A stretch of 28,103 nt of DNA. Origin: a virus. Taxonomy: Duplodnaviria; Heunggongvirae; Uroviricota; Caudoviricetes. Under the pieces are notes generated by a model. That model saw nothing but the letters and a program-made list of their open reading frames with translations. It had not been told where the DNA came from and searched no databases. Where the stretch lies: IMG/VR virus record IMGVR_UViG_2529292905_000015. The stretch is one strand, 5' to 3'. The position numbers were made by a program, and so were the translations under genes. Shown piece by piece: positions 4,644 to 9,273 of the stretch; the first letter of the stretch is position 1, and the number at the start of each line of letters is the position of its first letter.

Positions 4644-5603
4644 TTAAAAAAAGAAGGTGATTGCTCCATTTATAAATGAATAGTCATCCCCTGTCTTGAA
4701 TTCTGATGTTACTTTATTAAATGCTAGTGTGAAGGCTACAGGTGCATACCCAATTGTTGCGCCAACTTGATATTCATCAACAGTTTTGTTTAGCGATACT
4801 GTTGTTTGTTTCGTCTGTATTGTTTTTCCTTCGAGAGTATAGTTGCGATTGACATCTCGTCTTTCCATACCTGCAAAAATCTTGTATTTGAATCCGCTTG
4901 TATCGGACATATGCATTAAACCACGGGGAGCCAGCAGACCAAAGCCATTATCCGAATTGAAGGTTTTATCATTACCAATGGCAATGGTTGCGCCATATGC
5001 TACATATTGAAATAAGTTTCCAGTAACAGCAGAAACTTCAGGGTATAATCCAACATTAGCACCTAAAATATCCATACTTGGTGTCATGGATAGCATCCCT
5101 TTTACAGTATAACCGTAGCGATTCTCTATTTGATCATCCCATGCATGATATTTTTCTGCCCCAATAATCTCATGAGCTTTATTTTGTACTTTCTGACCGC
5201 CTGCGTCGGGGCCAACAACACCTATGTCAGTACCTAATCGATAGCGAATCCAGTCATTCGCAAGGGAGTTCCATTCAATACCAGTGTGAGTGTATGCACT
5301 AAAAGCTCTGTCTCCAGTTACAGCTGTGTTGTGTCTTTTATTACTGCCTGATGGAGAGTAAATATCTTGCGCAATATGGAGAGATAATTGGCTCGAGTCT
5401 GAGATATCGTGGCTATATCCCAGAAATAAGCCTTGTGAGTAATCATCTCTGTTTTCATGTTTATTGCCATAAATATCATTAAGTATTGGTTGAAACTTCC
5501 CTGCATCATCATTTGCTAATGATAATGCAAGGCTGTTCGCGATAGCTGAACACGTGGTAAATGACAGAGCAATAAAGACGCCAGCGATGACACTTTTTTT
5601 CAT
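4644..5603 (-). CDS. Outer-membrane beta-barrel protein, cargo gene; tentatively LpxR-like lipid A 3'-O-deacylase
   Basis: 319 aa; N-terminal signal peptide MKKSVIAGVFIALSFTTCSA; alternating amphipathic segments; C-terminal aromatic FFF typical of a beta-barrel signature; AT-rich with atypical codon usage; antisense to the flanking phage genes. Size and position recall the prophage-borne LpxR of EHEC, but this is from memory, not a sequence match. Confidence 0.7.
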   Translation of the reverse strand: MKKSVIAGVFIALSFTTCSAIANSLALSLANDDAGKFQPILNDIYGNKHENRDDYSQGLFLGYSHDISDSSQLSLHIAQDIYSPSGSNKRHNTAVTGDRAFSAYTHTGIEWNSLANDWIRYRLGTDIGVVGPDAGGQKVQNKAHEIIGAEKYHAWDDQIENRYGYTVKGMLSMTPSMDILGANVGLYPEVSAVTGNLFQYVAYGATIAIGNDKTFNSDNGFGLLAPRGLMHMSDTSGFKYKIFAGMERRDVNRNYTLEGKTIQTKQTTVSLNKTVDEYQVGATIGYAPVAFTLAFNKVTSEFKTGDDYSFINGAITFFF

Positions 5604-5993: not shown

Positions 5994-6767
5994 GTGCTTA
6001 TGTCGTTTCCCCGATTCGGTTTTGAACGATTACCGAATGTTGAAGAATTATGCCAAAATATAGAAAGGATTTACTGCATGAATACCCAATATTTACAGTA
6101 TGTTCGTGAGCAACTTATGGCAGCTACTGCTGACTTGAACGGAGCAACGAAAGGCCAGCTCGAAGCCTGGCAGGAGCATGCACAATTTGATACTGGTACA
6201 TACAAACGAAAGAAGCCGCGCATTCTGGATGTGGTAACTGGCAAGATGATTACGCTGGATAATACGCCGACTTCCGGTAAGCAGTCGTACGCAAAAGGTT
6301 CATCCATTGCTTTGGTCAGCCCGGTTGAATTCTCAACCTCTTCATGGCGCCGCGCGGTTTTGTCTCTCGATGAACATCAGAAAGCATGGTTGCTTTGGTG
6401 TTACAGCGAAAGCGTTCGATGGGGGCATCAGGTCACCATAACGCAATGGGCATGGAGCGAGTTTAAAGATTTGTTAAGTAACAGAAAAATTGCAGGTAAG
6501 ACACTGGATCGCCTGAAGACGTTAATCTGGCTGGCTGCACAGGATGTGAAGAGCGAACTTGCAGGGCGTGAGGCCTATGAATACCAGACACTGGCATCAT
6601 TGGTGGGAGTGACAACAAAAAACTGGTCCGAGACATTTACTGAACGCTGGGTTGCAATGAAGCACATTTTTCTACAGCTTGATAGTGATGCTTTATTGCT
6701 TGTGACGAGAACACGTTCAAAACAAAAGGCAGCATTTTTACAGCAAAATATTGCAAAACTGGATTAA
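5994..6767 (+). CDS. Late-gene antiterminator Q, long form; probable true start at ATG 6078 (MNTQYLQYVREQL...)
   Basis: Sits between the nin region and the PR'-tR' unit and lysis genes; resembles the roughly 250-aa Q proteins of E. coli cryptic prophages (from memory); the track ORF begins on GTG at 5994; ATG 6078 has an AGGA motif about 8 nt upstream. Confidence 0.6.
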   Translation: MLMSFPRFGFERLPNVEELCQNIERIYCMNTQYLQYVREQLMAATADLNGATKGQLEAWQEHAQFDTGTYKRKKPRILDVVTGKMITLDNTPTSGKQSYAKGSSIALVSPVEFSTSSWRRAVLSLDEHQKAWLLWCYSESVRWGHQVTITQWAWSEFKDLLSNRKIAGKTLDRLKTLIWLAAQDVKSELAGREAYEYQTLASLVGVTTKNWSETFTERWVAMKHIFLQLDSDALLLVTRTRSKQKAAFLQQNIAKLD

Positions 6768-6779
6768 AAGCCATATACT
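6751..6779 (+). promoter_or_regulatory. PR'-like late promoter: -35 TTGCAA (6751-6756), 17-bp spacer, -10 TATACT (6774-6779); the Q-utilisation site is expected to overlap
   Basis: Sigma-70 consensus-like hexamers with ideal spacing, immediately after the Q stop and about 35 nt upstream of a strong terminator; a -10-like TATGTT lies in the initially transcribed region, as at lambdoid pause sites. Confidence 0.5.
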
Positions 6780-6814
6780 TCATGCAAATTTGGTATGTTG
6801 TAAAAAATGTATAA

Positions 6815-6839
6815 ACCCGCTGCCGAGTGGGTTTTTTTT
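6815..6839 (+). terminator. tR'-like intrinsic terminator: 7-bp stem ACCCGCU / AGUGGGU (one G-U pair), GCCG loop, then eight T
   Basis: Hairpin plus T8 read directly from the sequence, about 35 nt downstream of the PR'-like -10. Confidence 0.7.
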
Positions 6840-6936
6840 ATGCCCTGAGTTGTACTTGTACGGTAAACATGCTGGCTGCTATGTAATAGAGTTTTTTTAG
6901 CCTGTAACCTCTTGACGGCATTGAATTGCTTTTGTT

Positions 6937-7695
6937 ATGAGTTGTAAGCCAATGTTATCATCTTGTATTGGGGTGGTTATGAAGGATGGTGCGCTGCTCA
7001 GGAGTTCTTCACTTTTTATTGCCTACATGGGATGCCTTGGATGGGGGAGTGCTTATTTCTATGGATGGGGTACTTCTTTTTACTACGGCTTCCCATGGTG
7101 GATTGTAGGTGCAGGTGTTGATGATGTTGCCAGAAGTTTATTTTTTGCAGTTATCGTCATTGCTATATTTCTTATCGGTTGGGGTATTGGTGTTGTATTC
7201 TTTTTCGCAGTGAAAAGAAAACATTCTATGCAAGAGCTAAATGTATTTCGCCTTTATTTTGCTGTGGAATTATTGTTTGTGCCGGCAATTATTGAGTTTT
7301 CTATATTGAGACAGAAGATTCAGGTACCTCTTTTGCTACTGTCAGCAGCGATTGCGCTGGCGGTTACAATTTCGATAAGATCTTATGGGCGATTTTTATC
7401 GGTATCATGCTTCTATGATAAGCCATTTATAAAAAAACATTTTTTTGAGATTGTGATGATTGCTTTTGTGGCATATTTCTGGCTTTTTTCATTTCTGACA
7501 GGATATTACAAACCACAGTTTAAGAAAGAATATGAAATGATTAATTATAATGATGGTTGGTATTATGTTCTTGCTCGTTATGATAATTGTCTGGTTTTGT
7601 CTACTTCTTTCAATGCAGGTAGTAAAAGGTTTGTCATTTATCAATCAGCACAAGATAAGAATCTTCAGGTTGATATTGTAAGGACCAGAATTTAA
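6937..7695 (+). CDS. Polytopic inner-membrane protein of unknown function (moron between Q and the lysis cassette); start ambiguous (ATG 6937, 6952 or 6979)
   Basis: About 5 predicted hydrophobic helices, an aromatic/Gly-rich N-terminal segment (GWGSAYFYGWGTSFYYGFPWW) and a roughly 60-aa hydrophilic C-terminal tail; AT-rich; possible own promoter TTGACG (6912-6917) with TATGAG about 18 bp downstream. Confidence 0.65.
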   Translation: MSCKPMLSSCIGVVMKDGALLRSSSLFIAYMGCLGWGSAYFYGWGTSFYYGFPWWIVGAGVDDVARSLFFAVIVIAIFLIGWGIGVVFFFAVKRKHSMQELNVFRLYFAVELLFVPAIIEFSILRQKIQVPLLLLSAAIALAVTISIRSYGRFLSVSCFYDKPFIKKHFFEIVMIAFVAYFWLFSFLTGYYKPQFKKEYEMINYNDGWYYVLARYDNCLVLSTSFNAGSKRFVIYQSAQDKNLQVDIVRTRI

Positions 7696-8125
7696 TTGGC
7701 TGCATAAATAATATTTTAAGTTGCAAGTTGGCTATTCGTAGGAATAGAACCTTAGGCATGCTGAATGCGTTTCCTGAACATTGTTTTATAAACTGTGTCT
7801 GCTTGCTGTTGTGATCCTGCTTTTAGTGATGGTGATGATGGATTTCACCAGCAGGATAATGTTGGTACTGACTGATGGCGCTCTGGTCTGCGGCATTGTG
7901 GTATTGCTGTGGCCGATGATGAAAGAACAGAATGAATAATTCTTGACTTTTTTGTTTACTGTTTATTAAAAAATCAACCGCATGGTGAATCCTCCTTGGA
8001 GGGGCTAAATGATCGAGTTTTAAGGGCACGTAGCGAGTTCTGTTTGATCATTGCAGAACTTAGCGGGAGGCGCCATGCGTACATCACTAATGTTATTTCC
8101 TTCTATCATTTTCCTTGTGAGTTCT

Positions 8126-8152
8126 GGCTGCGCATGGCGCGGCCTTTTTTTT
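8126..8152 (+). terminator. Strong intrinsic terminator: GGCUGCGC-AUG-GCGCGGCC hairpin followed by eight T
   Basis: 8-bp GC-rich stem with one G-U pair and a T8 tract, read directly; lies downstream of the moron and upstream of the lysis cassette. Confidence 0.7.
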
Positions 8153-8328
8153 ATGACCTGCCACTGGCAGATGGTCATCCTGTGATTTGATTCCGGTTCC
8201 GGCTTTTTAACTCTGTTCCTGTACACGGGAGAAATTCTATGTCGATTAATCGTTATGATATTGGTTACAAGAAGTACCACGTATTGTGTTGAGATAGAAA
8301 GCATGGTGCCAGAGGTAAATGCAGCAGC

Positions 8329-8380
8329 ATAATAAAAAAGAGCCAGCGCAGAAGAGAACGGGTAAAAGAGTCTGCGCTGG
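8329..8380 (-). terminator. Minus-strand terminator-like element: perfect 10-bp inverted repeat (CCAGCGCAGA / TCTGCGCTGG) with an 18-nt loop, followed on the minus strand by CTCTTTTTTATT
   Basis: Read directly; the U-rich tail exists only on the minus strand; a consensus-like minus-strand promoter lies about 55-110 bp upstream of it (see findings). Confidence 0.5.
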
Positions 8381-8560
8381 CGTGGGGATATTCCCCGTGG
8401 AGAAATGATATGTAACACACATCGGGAACCTTTCTATATAAACATTATCATTATTGTCAATCATAACAGTCAGGTATTATGACGTTTATGCATCAGGGCC
8501 ATCAGGAATTAACTGGTGGCTTTTTATTGTTGTCAGCTTCCGGATAACGGGAGACGGGGT

Positions 8561-8776
8561 ATGTACCAGATGGAAAAAATAACAACAGGTGTGTCATACA
8601 CCACGTCAGCGGTGGGGACGGGATACTGGCTACTGCAGTTGCTGGACAAAGTCTCCCCATCCCAGTGGGTGGCAATAGGCGTATTGGGTAGCTTGGTGTT
8701 TGGCTTGCTGACGTATCTGACAAACCTTTATTTCAAGATTAAAGAAGATAAGCGTAAGGCTGCGAGAGGTGAATAA
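8561..8776 (+). CDS. S: Class II holin, phage 21 S-type pinholin, with a dual-start motif (MYQMEK)
   Basis: [66 protein letters not shown] closely resembles remembered S21; two transmembrane segments; stop overlaps the endolysin start. Confidence 0.85.
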
Positions 8777-9273
8777 TGTCGCCATCATTACGCAAGGCTG
8801 TTGCTGCTGCTATTGGTGGTGGGGCTGTTGCCATAGCGTCTGTGCTCATCACTGGTCCGAGTGGTGACGATGGCCTGGAAGGTGTCAGCTACATACCATA
8901 CGAAGATATCGTTGGCGTATGGACTGTATGTCACGGACACACCGGAAAAGACATCATGCCCGGTAAAACGTATACCGAAGCAGAATGCAAAGCCCTCCTG
9001 AATAAAGACCTTGCCACGGTCGCCAGACAAATTAACCCGTACATCAAAGTCGATATACCGGAAACAACGCGCGGCGCTCTTTACTCGTTCGTTTACAACG
9101 TGGGCGCTGGTAATTTCAGAACATCGACGCTTCTTCGCAAAATAAACCAGGGTGATATCAAAGGCGCATGTGATCAGCTACGGCGCTGGACATACGCTGG
9201 CGGTAAGCAATGGAAAGGGCTGATGACTCGCCGCGAGATTGAGCGTGAAGTCTGTTTGTGGGGGCAACAATGA
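8776..9273 (+). CDS. R: SAR (signal-anchor-release) endolysin, lysozyme-type, phage 21 R-like
   Basis: N-terminal Gly/Ala-rich weakly hydrophobic segment ([20 protein letters not shown]) followed by a lysozyme-like domain; immediately follows the pinholin. Confidence 0.85.

Follow-up and report, generated by a model that had tools for sequence, protein, structure and literature searches.

What kind of gene, if any, occupies positions 7943 to 8185 of the window, the 28,103-nucleotide stretch of Caudoviricetes DNA (IMG/VR record IMGVR_UViG_2529292905_000015) analysed here? Reading the sequence recovered every element that a first-pass annotation had listed for this locus: a TTGACT hexamer at 7943-7948, an AT-rich stretch behind it (TTTTTTGTTTACTGTTTATTAAAAAAT), GGGAGG and an ATG at 8075. 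The frame opened by this ATG does run for 36 codons and end at 8185, and a terminator at 8126-8152 does lie inside it, such that a transcript ending at 8152 holds 26 codons and no stop. The same annotation had wavered between a leader peptide with an attenuator and a short non-coding transcript. The latter proved correct, as promoter and terminator delimit the published 173-nt RNA PasD1/EcOnc13, which lambda-like prophages of pathogenic E. coli carry. We put the probability at about 0.92 that 7980-8152 is the gene pasD1, encoding an independently transcribed, Hfq-associated, trans-acting sRNA of a lambdoid prophage of the Sp3/CP-933K type. This feature is already known: first seen in 2014, it received its name and validation in 2021, and its occurrence among genomes was surveyed in 2026. 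The locus therefore matters mainly for annotation and little as a discovery. The identity of PasD1, its ends, its Hfq association and its RNA partners are taken from published work; family conservation and covariation were computed here.

Identity with a published small RNA

7980..8152, plus strand: PasD1 (EcOnc13; STnc100_1) sRNA, 173 nt, placed by exact identity to the published RNA

Sequence comparison of window 7980-8152 with PasD1 of enteropathogenic E. coli (EPEC) E2348/69 gave 173/173 identical nucleotides, and the longer segment 7943-8190 matches exactly at the PasD1 locus of E2348/69 (NC_011601.1) and also in Sakai Sp3 and EDL933. PasD1 is listed on the plus strand of E2348/69 at 1060260..1060432, 173 nt (Pearl Mizrahi 2021, Sci Adv, PMC8550237, Table S6). 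These coordinates convert to window 7980-8152, with the published 3' end, 1060432, falling on 8152; the published 5' end was derived from read coverage (an "estimated start") and is not a mapped triphosphate end (Pearl Mizrahi 2021, PMC8550237). The RNA was validated in EPEC by RIL-seq and Northern blot, and the main text of that study describes blots that corroborate its size, its Hfq-dependent stability and its expression under activating conditions (Pearl Mizrahi 2021, PMC8550237). The Northern probe used in that study (CATGCGCAGCCAGAACTCACAAGG) corresponds to window 8113-8136 in reverse complement. RNA-seq of an hfq deletion gave log2 fold changes for pasD1 of -0.18 under activating and +1.41 under non-activating conditions (Pearl Mizrahi 2021, PMC8550237); abundance was not lowered, so strict Hfq dependence of stability is not clear-cut.

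Homologues of PasD1 in enterohemorrhagic strains (EHEC) are given as EcOnc13 (Pearl Mizrahi 2021, Table S6, PMC8550237). Window 7900-8600 is identical to Sakai prophage Sp3, in which Hfq crosslinking defined EcOnc13 by a CRAC peak at Sakai 901332-901382 and a Northern band of ~187 nt (Tree 2014, Mol Cell, PMC4104026, Table S2). The peak converts to window 8086-8136, and EcOnc13 is thus the same locus, but defined only by the Hfq-bound peak and the ~187-nt band. The probe sequence listed for EcOnc13 by Tree 2014 has no match in the window, so it is the coordinates, not the probe, that tie EcOnc13 to this locus. A literature search did not find the name EcOnc13 in main texts. The STnc100_1 sequence of EDL933, placed on the window by means of the sequence printed in the paper's supplement, equals window 7950-8108, and 1046 RNA-seq reads from EDL933 fall on this identical sequence; the Cappable-seq start-site tables for EDL933 have no entry at the expected pasD1 coordinates.

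The RNA does not differ between the two settings, a prophage of the O157:H7 type (Sp3/CP-933K) here and prophage PP4 in EPEC. Both loci have as neighbours a Q-type antiterminator, a 247-aa membrane protein (WP_001302581.1), a DUF3927 protein, an antisense ORF and a class II holin. PasD2, the paralogue, differs from PasD1 at 5 positions, including a 1-nt deletion, and LpxR is encoded upstream at the PasD2 locus as it is in the window. Of 5426 complete E. coli genomes, 677 contain a sequence at least 95% identical.

Promoter and terminator

7943..7948, plus strand: -35 hexamer TTGACT of the pasD1 promoter, read from the sequence; its position fits the family and the distance to the published 5' end
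7967..7972, plus strand: -10 hexamer TAAAAA, with a spacing of 18 nt from the -35 and of 7 nt to the start, agreeing with the family consensus
8126..8152, plus strand: intrinsic terminator and PasD1 3' end, from a terminator scan, the predicted fold and the published 3' end

A sigma-70-type promoter (TTGACT, 18 nt, TAAAAA) would start transcription at G7980 and the intrinsic terminator at 8126-8152 would end it, giving the 173-nt RNA. Among STnc100/PasD copies, 42 distinct upstream sequences carry a TTGnnT hexamer at -37..-31, and the family -10 covers -12..-7, counted from the G of GCATGG. The family consensus, TTTGTTAAAAnA, has an extended -10 (TGnTAAAAn) in most copies. A consensus promoter scan did not report the TTGACT/TAAAAA promoter because its -10 lacks the final T. 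The terminator stem (GGCTGCGC/GCGCGGCC, 8126-8144) has 8 pairs, 7 of them G-C, and a 3-nt loop, followed by T8 at 8145-8152; the terminator is also kept in a relative (L060) whose seed region differs.

The single motifs are not significant alone. Between 6500 and 10000, 6 terminator-like sites were observed against 3.0 +/- 2.0 expected, and the window holds 10 matches to GGAGG-N3-9-ATG compared with 7.25 +/- 2.63 after shuffling (19 of 100 shuffles reach 10). We take the pasD1 motifs as real because the locus is 100% identical to a mapped RNA, because the promoter geometry recurs in 42 sequences, and because Hfq crosslinks and RNA-seq reads were found there.

Relationship to the STnc100 family

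By sequence comparison, PasD1 is a divergent member of the STnc100 (RF02076) lineage. The Rfam STnc100 model aligned over its full length (1-206) to window 7950-8155 with 37.7 bits and an E-value of 3.7e-6 in an E-value scan. This is below the STnc100 gathering score of 47, and formal Rfam membership therefore does not apply; a scan at gathering thresholds did not list STnc100 and reported only ALIL, elsewhere in the window. A tRNA scan was negative. PasD has been described as a structural homologue of STnc100 (Zhu, Shabalina and Storz 2026, bioRxiv 10.64898/2026.05.13.724894). The two share promoter geometry, helices P1 (GCAUGGUG/CACCAUGC), P2 and P4, a loop pseudoknot, a genomic location following Q and moron genes, and a 3' end made of a variable seed plus terminator. 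The window copy combines its own promoter with a variable 3' region that ends in an intrinsic terminator, and it passes the >75% length match to PasD1/PasD2 of E2348/69 by which PasD copies were recognized (Zhu 2026). PasD differs from STnc100 in lacking the P5 hairpin (CCGGG-AGGCA-CCCGG), where a 7-nt deletion leaves GCGGGAGGCGCC, in a P2 loop that is 3 nt shorter and in having its own 3' module.

The pasD1 gene occupies the "moron" position, with the Q antiterminator/PR' on one side and the lysis cassette on the other. More than 98% of copies have both Q and LpxR at a distance of up to 10 kb, and holin and lysozyme genes are direct neighbours (Zhu 2026, bioRxiv 10.64898/2026.05.13.724894). 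The window has the same synteny, with lpxR at 4644-5603 on the minus strand, Q at 6078-6767, holin at 8561-8776 and lysozyme at 8776-9273.

A structured 5' domain with a pseudoknot

7980..8078, plus strand: conserved structured 5' domain (family alignments)
7980-7987 with 8071-8078, plus strand: P1 closing helix (family alignments)
7991-8004, plus strand: P2 hairpin (family alignments)
8036-8043 with 8053-8060, plus strand: P4 hairpin (family alignments, covariation)
8008-8016 with P4 loop 8044-8052, plus strand: pseudoknot (complementarity with controls)

The first of two modules of PasD1 would be a tightly folded 5' domain (7980-8078), closed by P1, containing a pseudoknot and common to the STnc100 family. 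P1, the C-rich P2 and P4 can all form in the window sequence. For P4, compensatory changes were seen at 2 pairs, and 97.8% of cells were paired compared with 40-47% in slid controls. RNAalifold run over the full 5' domain misses P4 because the variable insert is misaligned. The pseudoknot was assessed by per-sequence complementarity with swap and shuffle controls instead of column-wise covariation, because MAFFT places the sequence classes in different registers. Six covarying sequence classes were found at this interaction; pairing of at least 6 bp between the P4 loop and the upstream segment was possible in 28 of 30 distinct combinations, as opposed to 6% with shuffled loops and 23% with cross-class swaps. 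The covarying pseudoknot of the PasD/STnc100 5' domain is thus well supported here and is possibly a new feature; the word "pseudoknot" is absent from the main text of the family paper of Zhu 2026.

Any function of this domain beyond RNA stability is speculation. A doubtful proposal is that P1, P2, P4 and the covarying pseudoknot form a functional module that carries 3' seed/terminator cassettes swapped by prophages, to which the 7-nt deletion of PasD might add ribosome engagement. Such a module may serve, for example, as a protein-binding or nuclease-resistant scaffold, or as a switch in which the P4 hairpin alternates with the long-range helix. If true, the ribosome engagement could explain the unexpectedly high density of ribosome footprints described below.

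A variable 3' module with linker, seed and terminator

8079..8115, plus strand: U-rich, mostly single-stranded linker and probable Hfq contact region (fold prediction, Hfq-CRAC, RIL-seq)
8116..8121, plus strand: seed UGUGAG, complementary to the published target motif

The second module would be the fast-evolving 3' part, in which U-rich linker, seed and a terminator with U8 form a typical Hfq-binding platform. The linker has a mean predicted probability of being unpaired of 0.69 and falls within the span of the Hfq-CRAC peak (8086-8136), and the RIL-seq chimera segments at 1060384-1060434 convert to window 8104-8154. As is characteristic of PasD, the seed stands immediately 5' of the terminator, UGUGAG at 8116-8121 and the stem from 8126, and it is the same in PasD1 and PasD2. 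The target motif of PasD1, CUCACA, is complementary to UGUGAG (Pearl Mizrahi 2021, Fig. S5 and motif table, PMC8550237), and the RIL-seq partners of the RNA include aceE, uspA, gltI, yhdW, tir, cesF and bfpB (Pearl Mizrahi 2021, PMC8550237). The seed would pair with mRNAs bearing CUCACA, from both core and virulence genes, and PasD1 may alter their expression.

The Shine-Dalgarno-like sequence and plus-strand reading frames

8065..8077, plus strand: SD-like GGGAGG (8065-8070) and AUG (8075-8077), structural elements with no demonstrated translation start
8075..8185, plus strand: 36-codon ORF, MRTSLMLFPSIIFLVSSGCAWRGLFFMTCHWQMVIL and stop, not a conserved gene
7996..8190, plus strand: alternative-frame TTG ORF of 64 aa, "X008"; the terminator overruns the frame and it is probably not coding

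Could PasD1 also be translated, as a dual-function RNA that yields a small hydrophobic peptide from AUG 8075 (26 codons without a stop, or 36 aa on read-through) or from TTG 7996 (X008, 64 aa)? GGGAGG does end 4 nt before the AUG, and ribosome profiling of EDL933 gave an mRNA-like density (RCV 2.16) on 7950-8108. X008, at 902889-903083 in EDL933 (window 7996-8190), had an RCV of 0.82 (Neuhaus 2016) and was classed as "real" by its authors. In the phage 434 record the X008-type ORF appears as CPT_434_70, a "putative membrane protein" that has an annotated terminator within its frame, and Ribo-seq studies call a novel small gene. However, RyhB, CyaR, MicA and ArcZ, all bona fide Hfq sRNAs, also have high RCV in the same data; since many such sRNAs score high, RCV is not specific for translation.

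The sequences that resemble a translation start also have another explanation. The AUG is part of the 3' strand of P1 (CACCAUGC in the family, CGCCAUGC in the window), a helix for which it is conserved, and the predicted probability of being unpaired is 0.05 for GGGAGG and 0.00 for the AUG. The spacing between them is 11 nt in the family and 4 nt in PasD, because the 7-nt deletion took out hairpin P5. The locus therefore looks like a gene because an SD-like sequence and an AUG arise from RNA helices and a lineage-specific deletion. Both ORFs extend beyond the 3' end of the RNA, the stop of the 8075 frame lying 33 nt past it, and neither has a Pfam family. The 36-codon frame, which itself sits inside a TTG-extended ORF at 8051-8185, has 14 codons in PasD2 as a result of the 1-nt deletion and 26 codons in a T7/T8 variant; elsewhere in the family, frames from the equivalent AUG range from 2 to more than 42 codons and their peptides are unrelated, and X008 differs from its nearest relative by indels that are not multiples of 3.

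The resemblance to a signal or lipoprotein peptide that had been suggested for the 36-codon product also did not hold. A lipobox has the form [LVI][ASTVI][GAS]C, follows a positively charged N-region and a hydrophobic region, and is conserved among homologues; the peptide reads ...LVSSGC, giving the motif S-S-G-C with S at -3 instead of L/V/I, and is absent or frameshifted in homologues. GGGAGG and AUG belong to helices within the 5' domain; the ORFs running through the terminator are incidental and show no sign of being real genes. PasD1 is probably not translated, and we consider a dual function very improbable.

The antisense reading frame and the convergent sRNA

8020..8418, minus strand: 132-aa "hypothetical protein" (ECs_0817 / WP_012578864.1) of annotation tables, probably a spurious call
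8421..8332, minus strand: convergent Esr41-like sRNA gene with its own terminator (~8376-8333), the next feature 3' of pasD1

Among the matches listed (12 of the 677 genomes), the only annotated feature beneath the pasD1 sequence is an antisense "hypothetical protein". PGAP and the Sakai annotation call this 132-aa minus-strand protein in many genomes, which raises the question of whether it is the real gene and the plus-strand motifs are incidental. However, its sole Pfam match is below the cutoff, leaving it with no family, and at the paralogous PasD2 locus the ORF is a frameshifted pseudogene with an internal stop. It also spans two sRNA genes that were detected experimentally on defined strands, and PasD1 is antisense to most of it (Pearl Mizrahi 2021, PMC8550237). 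That this protein is the true product of the locus is highly unlikely.

EcOnc13 forms a convergent pair with EcOnc32, an arrangement described for the moron site (Tree 2014, PMC4104026). The anti-sRNAs AsxR and AgvB and the sRNA Esr41 of EHEC share this lambdoid niche, Hfq binding and convergent pairing. AsxR and AgvB are 51-60 nt long, and in them the seed is 5' and variable while the 3' part is conserved; PasD1, at 173 nt, has the reverse order, its 5' domain being conserved and its 3' seed variable. A relationship to IpeX/DLP12 was considered and dropped, as nothing comparable is annotated in the Q-to-lysis region of DLP12 in K-12.

The attenuator reading and possible insulation of the lysis genes

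Under the attenuator reading of the first-pass annotation, whether the short ORF is translated would determine how often transcription passes the terminator and enters the lysis genes. Like the trp, his and phe leaders, pasD1 has an SD-like sequence and an AUG that open a short ORF upstream of a strong in-frame intrinsic terminator. Unlike them, it has no run of regulatory codons, no conserved ORF and no downstream co-transcribed operon, and neither the minimum-energy nor the centroid fold contains an antiterminator pairing that competes with the terminator stem. The terminator is conserved and the ORF is not, the predicted fold sequesters GGGAGG and AUG, and the next gene is not co-oriented: the convergent sRNA (8421..8332) follows, and the holin gene is 409 nt away behind further terminators. 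In lambdoid phages, moreover, lysis genes are transcribed from PR' by a Q-modified polymerase that ignores terminators, and the window has a Q gene (PF06323) at 6078-6767. What accumulates is a stable 173-nt RNA, abundant and bound by Hfq. Phe and Leu leader models match weakly, and elsewhere in the window (6719-6841, the PR'/tR' region). The locus therefore does not support an attenuator, which we regard as extremely improbable.

A role of the pasD1 terminator in insulation is compatible with, and complementary to, the sRNA. In a lysogen, the terminators of pasD1 and of the convergent sRNA would keep transcription of the moron (6937-7939) or of pasD1 out of the holin and endolysin genes. Two convergent strong terminators (8126-8152 on the plus strand and ~8376-8333 on the minus strand) do lie between the moron ORFs and the holin gene, another terminator-like hairpin is found at 8495-8523, and the convergent arrangement is a conserved feature of lambdoid prophages (Tree 2014, PMC4104026). 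However, insulation would be a side effect of any terminated gene at this site, and in relatives the sRNA and the holin are separated by an esterase gene of 1.8 kb. Insulation of the lysis genes is therefore a plausible secondary effect of the pasD1 terminator, and we advance it tentatively, as possible rather than likely.

Identification of the locus as pasD1

The elements that the first-pass annotation had read at this locus are each present in the sequence where it had placed them:

7943-7948, plus strand: -35 hexamer TTGACT, read from the sequence and followed by an AT-rich spacer
8065-8070, plus strand: GGGAGG, read from the sequence
8075, plus strand: ATG opening a 36-codon frame that ends at 8185
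8126-8144, plus strand: stem of an intrinsic terminator found by a terminator scan (8 bp, seven of them G-C), with T8 running to 8152

Taken alone, none of these motifs is remarkable. The window holds 10 instances of GGAGG-N3-9-ATG versus 7.25 +/- 2.63 in shuffles, and the pasD1 promoter was not among the matches of a consensus promoter scan. Because the motifs are weak individually, the reality of the feature was judged on other sequences and on published data.

When Rfam was scanned by E-value, 7950-8155 (+) matched STnc100 (RF02076) along the full length of the model (E = 3.7e-6); the score, 37.7 bits, is under the gathering threshold of 47. PasD1 and PasD2, both prophage sRNAs, have been described as structural homologues of STnc100 (Zhu, Shabalina and Storz 2026, bioRxiv 10.64898/2026.05.13.724894). 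PasD1 is a 173-nt RNA at NC_011601.1 + 1060260..1060432, was detected with the Northern probe CATGCGCAGCCAGAACTCACAAGG, and has EcOnc13 as its EHEC homologue (Pearl Mizrahi 2021, PMC8550237, Table S6). When the PasD1 locus of E2348/69 was aligned to the window, 7943-8190 proved exact, and PasD1 is therefore window 7980-8152. The Northern probe matches 8113-8136 in reverse complement. UGUGAG at 8116-8121 is the published seed, which complements the target motif CUCACA. EcOnc13 was reported from Hfq-CRAC, its peak spanning Sakai 901332-901382 (+) of prophage Sp3, and gave a Northern band of ~187 nt (Tree 2014, PMC4104026, Table S2); this peak maps to window 8086-8136. Likewise, the sequence printed for EDL933 'STnc100_1', which had 1046 RNA-seq reads (Neuhaus et al. 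2017), is window 7950-8108. Since all three data sets fall on one sequence, the feature is a known, experimentally detected sRNA gene, PasD1 = EcOnc13 = STnc100_1, and the earlier suggestion of a short non-coding transcript is borne out. Only two points are possibly new here, namely a covarying pseudoknot in the 5' domain and an explanation of the Shine-Dalgarno/AUG look-alike.

The supplement of Tree 2014 gives a Northern probe for EcOnc13 that was not found in the window. In reverse complement this probe is similar to the promoter region of another STnc100 paralogue (upstream of family locus L117, outside the window), which points either to a misaligned table or to a probe directed at a paralogue.

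Genomic setting and distribution

The setting is the late region of a lambdoid prophage:

4644-5603, minus strand: lpxR
upstream of Q: ylcG
6078-6767: Q antiterminator (PF06323)
6751-6842, plus strand: PR'-like promoter and tR'-like terminator
6937-7695: membrane protein
7781-7939: DUF3927 protein
7943-8185, plus strand: pasD1 locus
8020-8418, minus strand: annotated 132-aa hypothetical protein (ECs_0817 / WP_012578864.1), covering both sRNA genes
8421..8332, minus strand: convergent sRNA gene, Esr41-like Rfam match
8473..8444, minus strand: promoter-like site of the convergent sRNA
8561-8776: class II holin
8776-9273: lysozyme
after lysozyme: Rz

Many E. coli O157:H7 chromosomes contain this region with 100% identity, and 7900-8600 is exact in Sakai prophage Sp3 (Sakai coordinate = window + 893246), in EDL933 (CP008957 coordinate = window + 893016) and in strain PV15-279. 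Zhu 2026 found Q and LpxR within 10 kb of >98% of PasD copies, with the holin/lysozyme operon adjacent and Esr41-like RNAs often nearby, which is exactly the neighbourhood seen here.

Of 5426 complete E. coli genomes, 677 carry a sequence with at least 95% identity to PasD1, with 907 such sites in all; among sequenced phages, PasD is found in 2B8 and 434. Among the matches listed (12 records), the sole feature under the match is the 'hypothetical protein', the antisense 132-aa ORF. A comparison of this ORF with protein families gave nothing above cutoff, and its counterpart at the PasD2 locus is a pseudogene; the ORF is probably a spurious call, propagated through the genome records inspected here.

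The end of Q overlaps the PR'-like promoter (TTGCAA, 17 nt, TATACT), downstream of which a strong terminator lies at 6813-6842. A transcript of this unit would be short and end at tR', comparable to lambda 6S or StxS. The 6751-6842 region also has a weak STnc240 match (28 bits), and the phage 434 record has a terminator at the same place.

Promoter and 5' domain

Scanning viral contigs for the conserved 5' motif gave a family of 87 copies with 49 distinct 5' domains. The 42 distinct upstream sequences carry a TTGnnT hexamer at -37..-31 and an (extended) -10, TTTGTTAAAAnA, at -15..-7 relative to the G of GCATGG. The pasD1 promoter reads TTGACT, 18 nt, TAAAAA, 7 nt, G7980; this geometry agrees with the published PasD1 5' end and with the family promoters, and thus supports the earlier call of TTGACT as a -35 element. 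The domain that follows is composed of these parts:

7980-8078, plus strand: 5' domain
P1, closing helix of the domain: GCAUGGUG with CGCCAUGC
P2: C-rich hairpin
P4 hairpin: 8036-8043 with 8053-8060
P5: CCGGG-AGGCA-CCCGG, in most relatives, absent from PasD

In the family alignment, P4 shows compensatory changes at two pairs, and 97.8% of its cells are paired versus 40-47% with the partner columns slid. Throughout the family the P4 loop is complementary to the 6-9 nt directly after P2 (in the window, 8008-8016 with 8044-8052, nine pairs), and this pairing, which family loci L007-L126 have at the equivalent positions, covaries across six sequence classes.

Sequence classes of the loop pairing (5' strand after P2 / P4 loop)
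AUCAGC / GCUGAU
UAUCAGUAC / GUACUGAUA
CUGGUG / CACCAG
AAUGAC / GUCAUU
AAUGAUCGA / UUGAUCAUU
CUGGCU / AGCCAG

At least 6 bp form in 28 of 30 matched P4-loop combinations, as opposed to 6% with shuffled loops and 23% with cross-class swaps. Together with P4, the covarying loop pairing implies that the domain folds as a pseudoknot or switches between two structures. In Zhu 2026, the term 'pseudoknot' is absent from the main text.

In PasD, P2 has CCUCCUU as its 5' strand (7991-7997, +), where other family members have CCCCCUG. CCUCCUU is able to pair with GGAGG (7998-8002) or GGGAGG (8065-8070), and it matches the anti-Shine-Dalgarno end of 16S rRNA.

The Shine-Dalgarno look-alike and the question of translation

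The AUG at 8075 belongs to the 3' strand of P1, which is why almost every family member has it. GGGAGG is universal, lying 11 nt before the AUG in STnc100 proper and 4 nt before it in PasD, owing to a 7-nt deletion that also removes P5. In the predicted ensemble of the 173-nt RNA, the probability of being unpaired is 0.05 for GGGAGG and 0.00 for the AUG, and 0.69 for the mostly open linker at 8079-8115. The frame from this AUG has 36, 26 or 14 codons in PasD variants and 2 to >42 codons elsewhere; its peptides are unrelated across the family, many being just the terminator hairpin translated. Neither this ORF nor the one in another frame at 7996-8190 has a Pfam match, and both extend beyond the 3' end of the RNA.

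We consider it very improbable that PasD1 is translated as well, although ribosome profiling in EDL933 gave a ribosome coverage value (RCV) of 2.16 on 7950-8108, an mRNA-like footprint density. ORF X008, which is window 7996-8190, had an RCV of 0.82 and was classed as a real small gene by its authors (Neuhaus 2016), and the phage 434 record annotates an X008-type ORF as a putative membrane protein with the terminator inside it. However, classical Hfq sRNAs such as RyhB, CyaR and MicA have equally high RCVs in the same data set, and the footprints on PasD1 are therefore regarded as non-specific. The footprints and the listing of X008 as a gene are also at odds with two observations, namely that the ORFs are not conserved and that the start region is predicted to be paired.

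The 3' module and Hfq

Downstream of the 5' domain, the family is hypervariable as far as the terminator. The nearest relative (L060) has promoter, terminator and flanks in common with the window; its seed region is different and longer, with indels that are not multiples of three. The layout is therefore a conserved 5' scaffold with an exchangeable 3' seed and terminator.

Published data show PasD1 at high levels in lysogens and place it on Hfq by crosslinking or ligation; when mapped, its Hfq crosslinking and RIL-seq ligation region is window 8086-8154. Pearl Mizrahi 2021 reported a pasD1 DESeq baseMean of 8652 in virulence-activating vs 502 in non-activating conditions, and RIL-seq chimeras with aceE, uspA, gltI, yhdW, coaE, spr, tir, cesF and bfpB, CUCACA being the motif common to the partners. 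In the same study PasD1 stability was Hfq-dependent by Northern blot, yet its RNA-seq level was not reduced in the hfq deletion strain, which is inconsistent. Hfq may contact the U-rich linker as well as the terminator and its U8 tail, with the seed UGUGAG presented for pairing. The probable role of the 5' domain is to stabilise the RNA or to bind a further factor.

Downstream of pasD1

A leader-peptide attenuator, also proposed by the first-pass annotation, would require a downstream gene under its control, an alternative fold in competition and a leader ORF that is conserved, and none is present. The first-pass interpretation is half right, correct as to a non-coding transcript and wrong as to attenuation.

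The convergent sRNA at 8421..8332 (-) is Esr41-like at 32.3 bits, under the gathering score of 102, and has a strong terminator hairpin (fold z-score -6.7), facing the terminator of pasD1. Plausibly, these two convergent terminators would protect the lysis genes in a lysogen as a side effect. Upon induction, as in lambda, these genes are read from PR' by Q-modified polymerase, which ignores terminators. The convergent gene corresponds to EcOnc32 (Sakai 901574-901662, minus strand, Northern band ~112 nt; Tree 2014), and the PasD1/EcOnc32 arrangement is the 'convergent sRNA pair in the moron site' of Sp3 and other prophages (Tree 2014).

A terminator-like hairpin lies at 8495-8523 (+), just upstream of the holin ribosome-binding site, and phage 434 has a terminator annotated equivalently. 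At the window start, an ALIL frameshifting pseudoknot at 1368-1484 (+; Rfam, 120.9 bits) marks an IS3-family insertion sequence.
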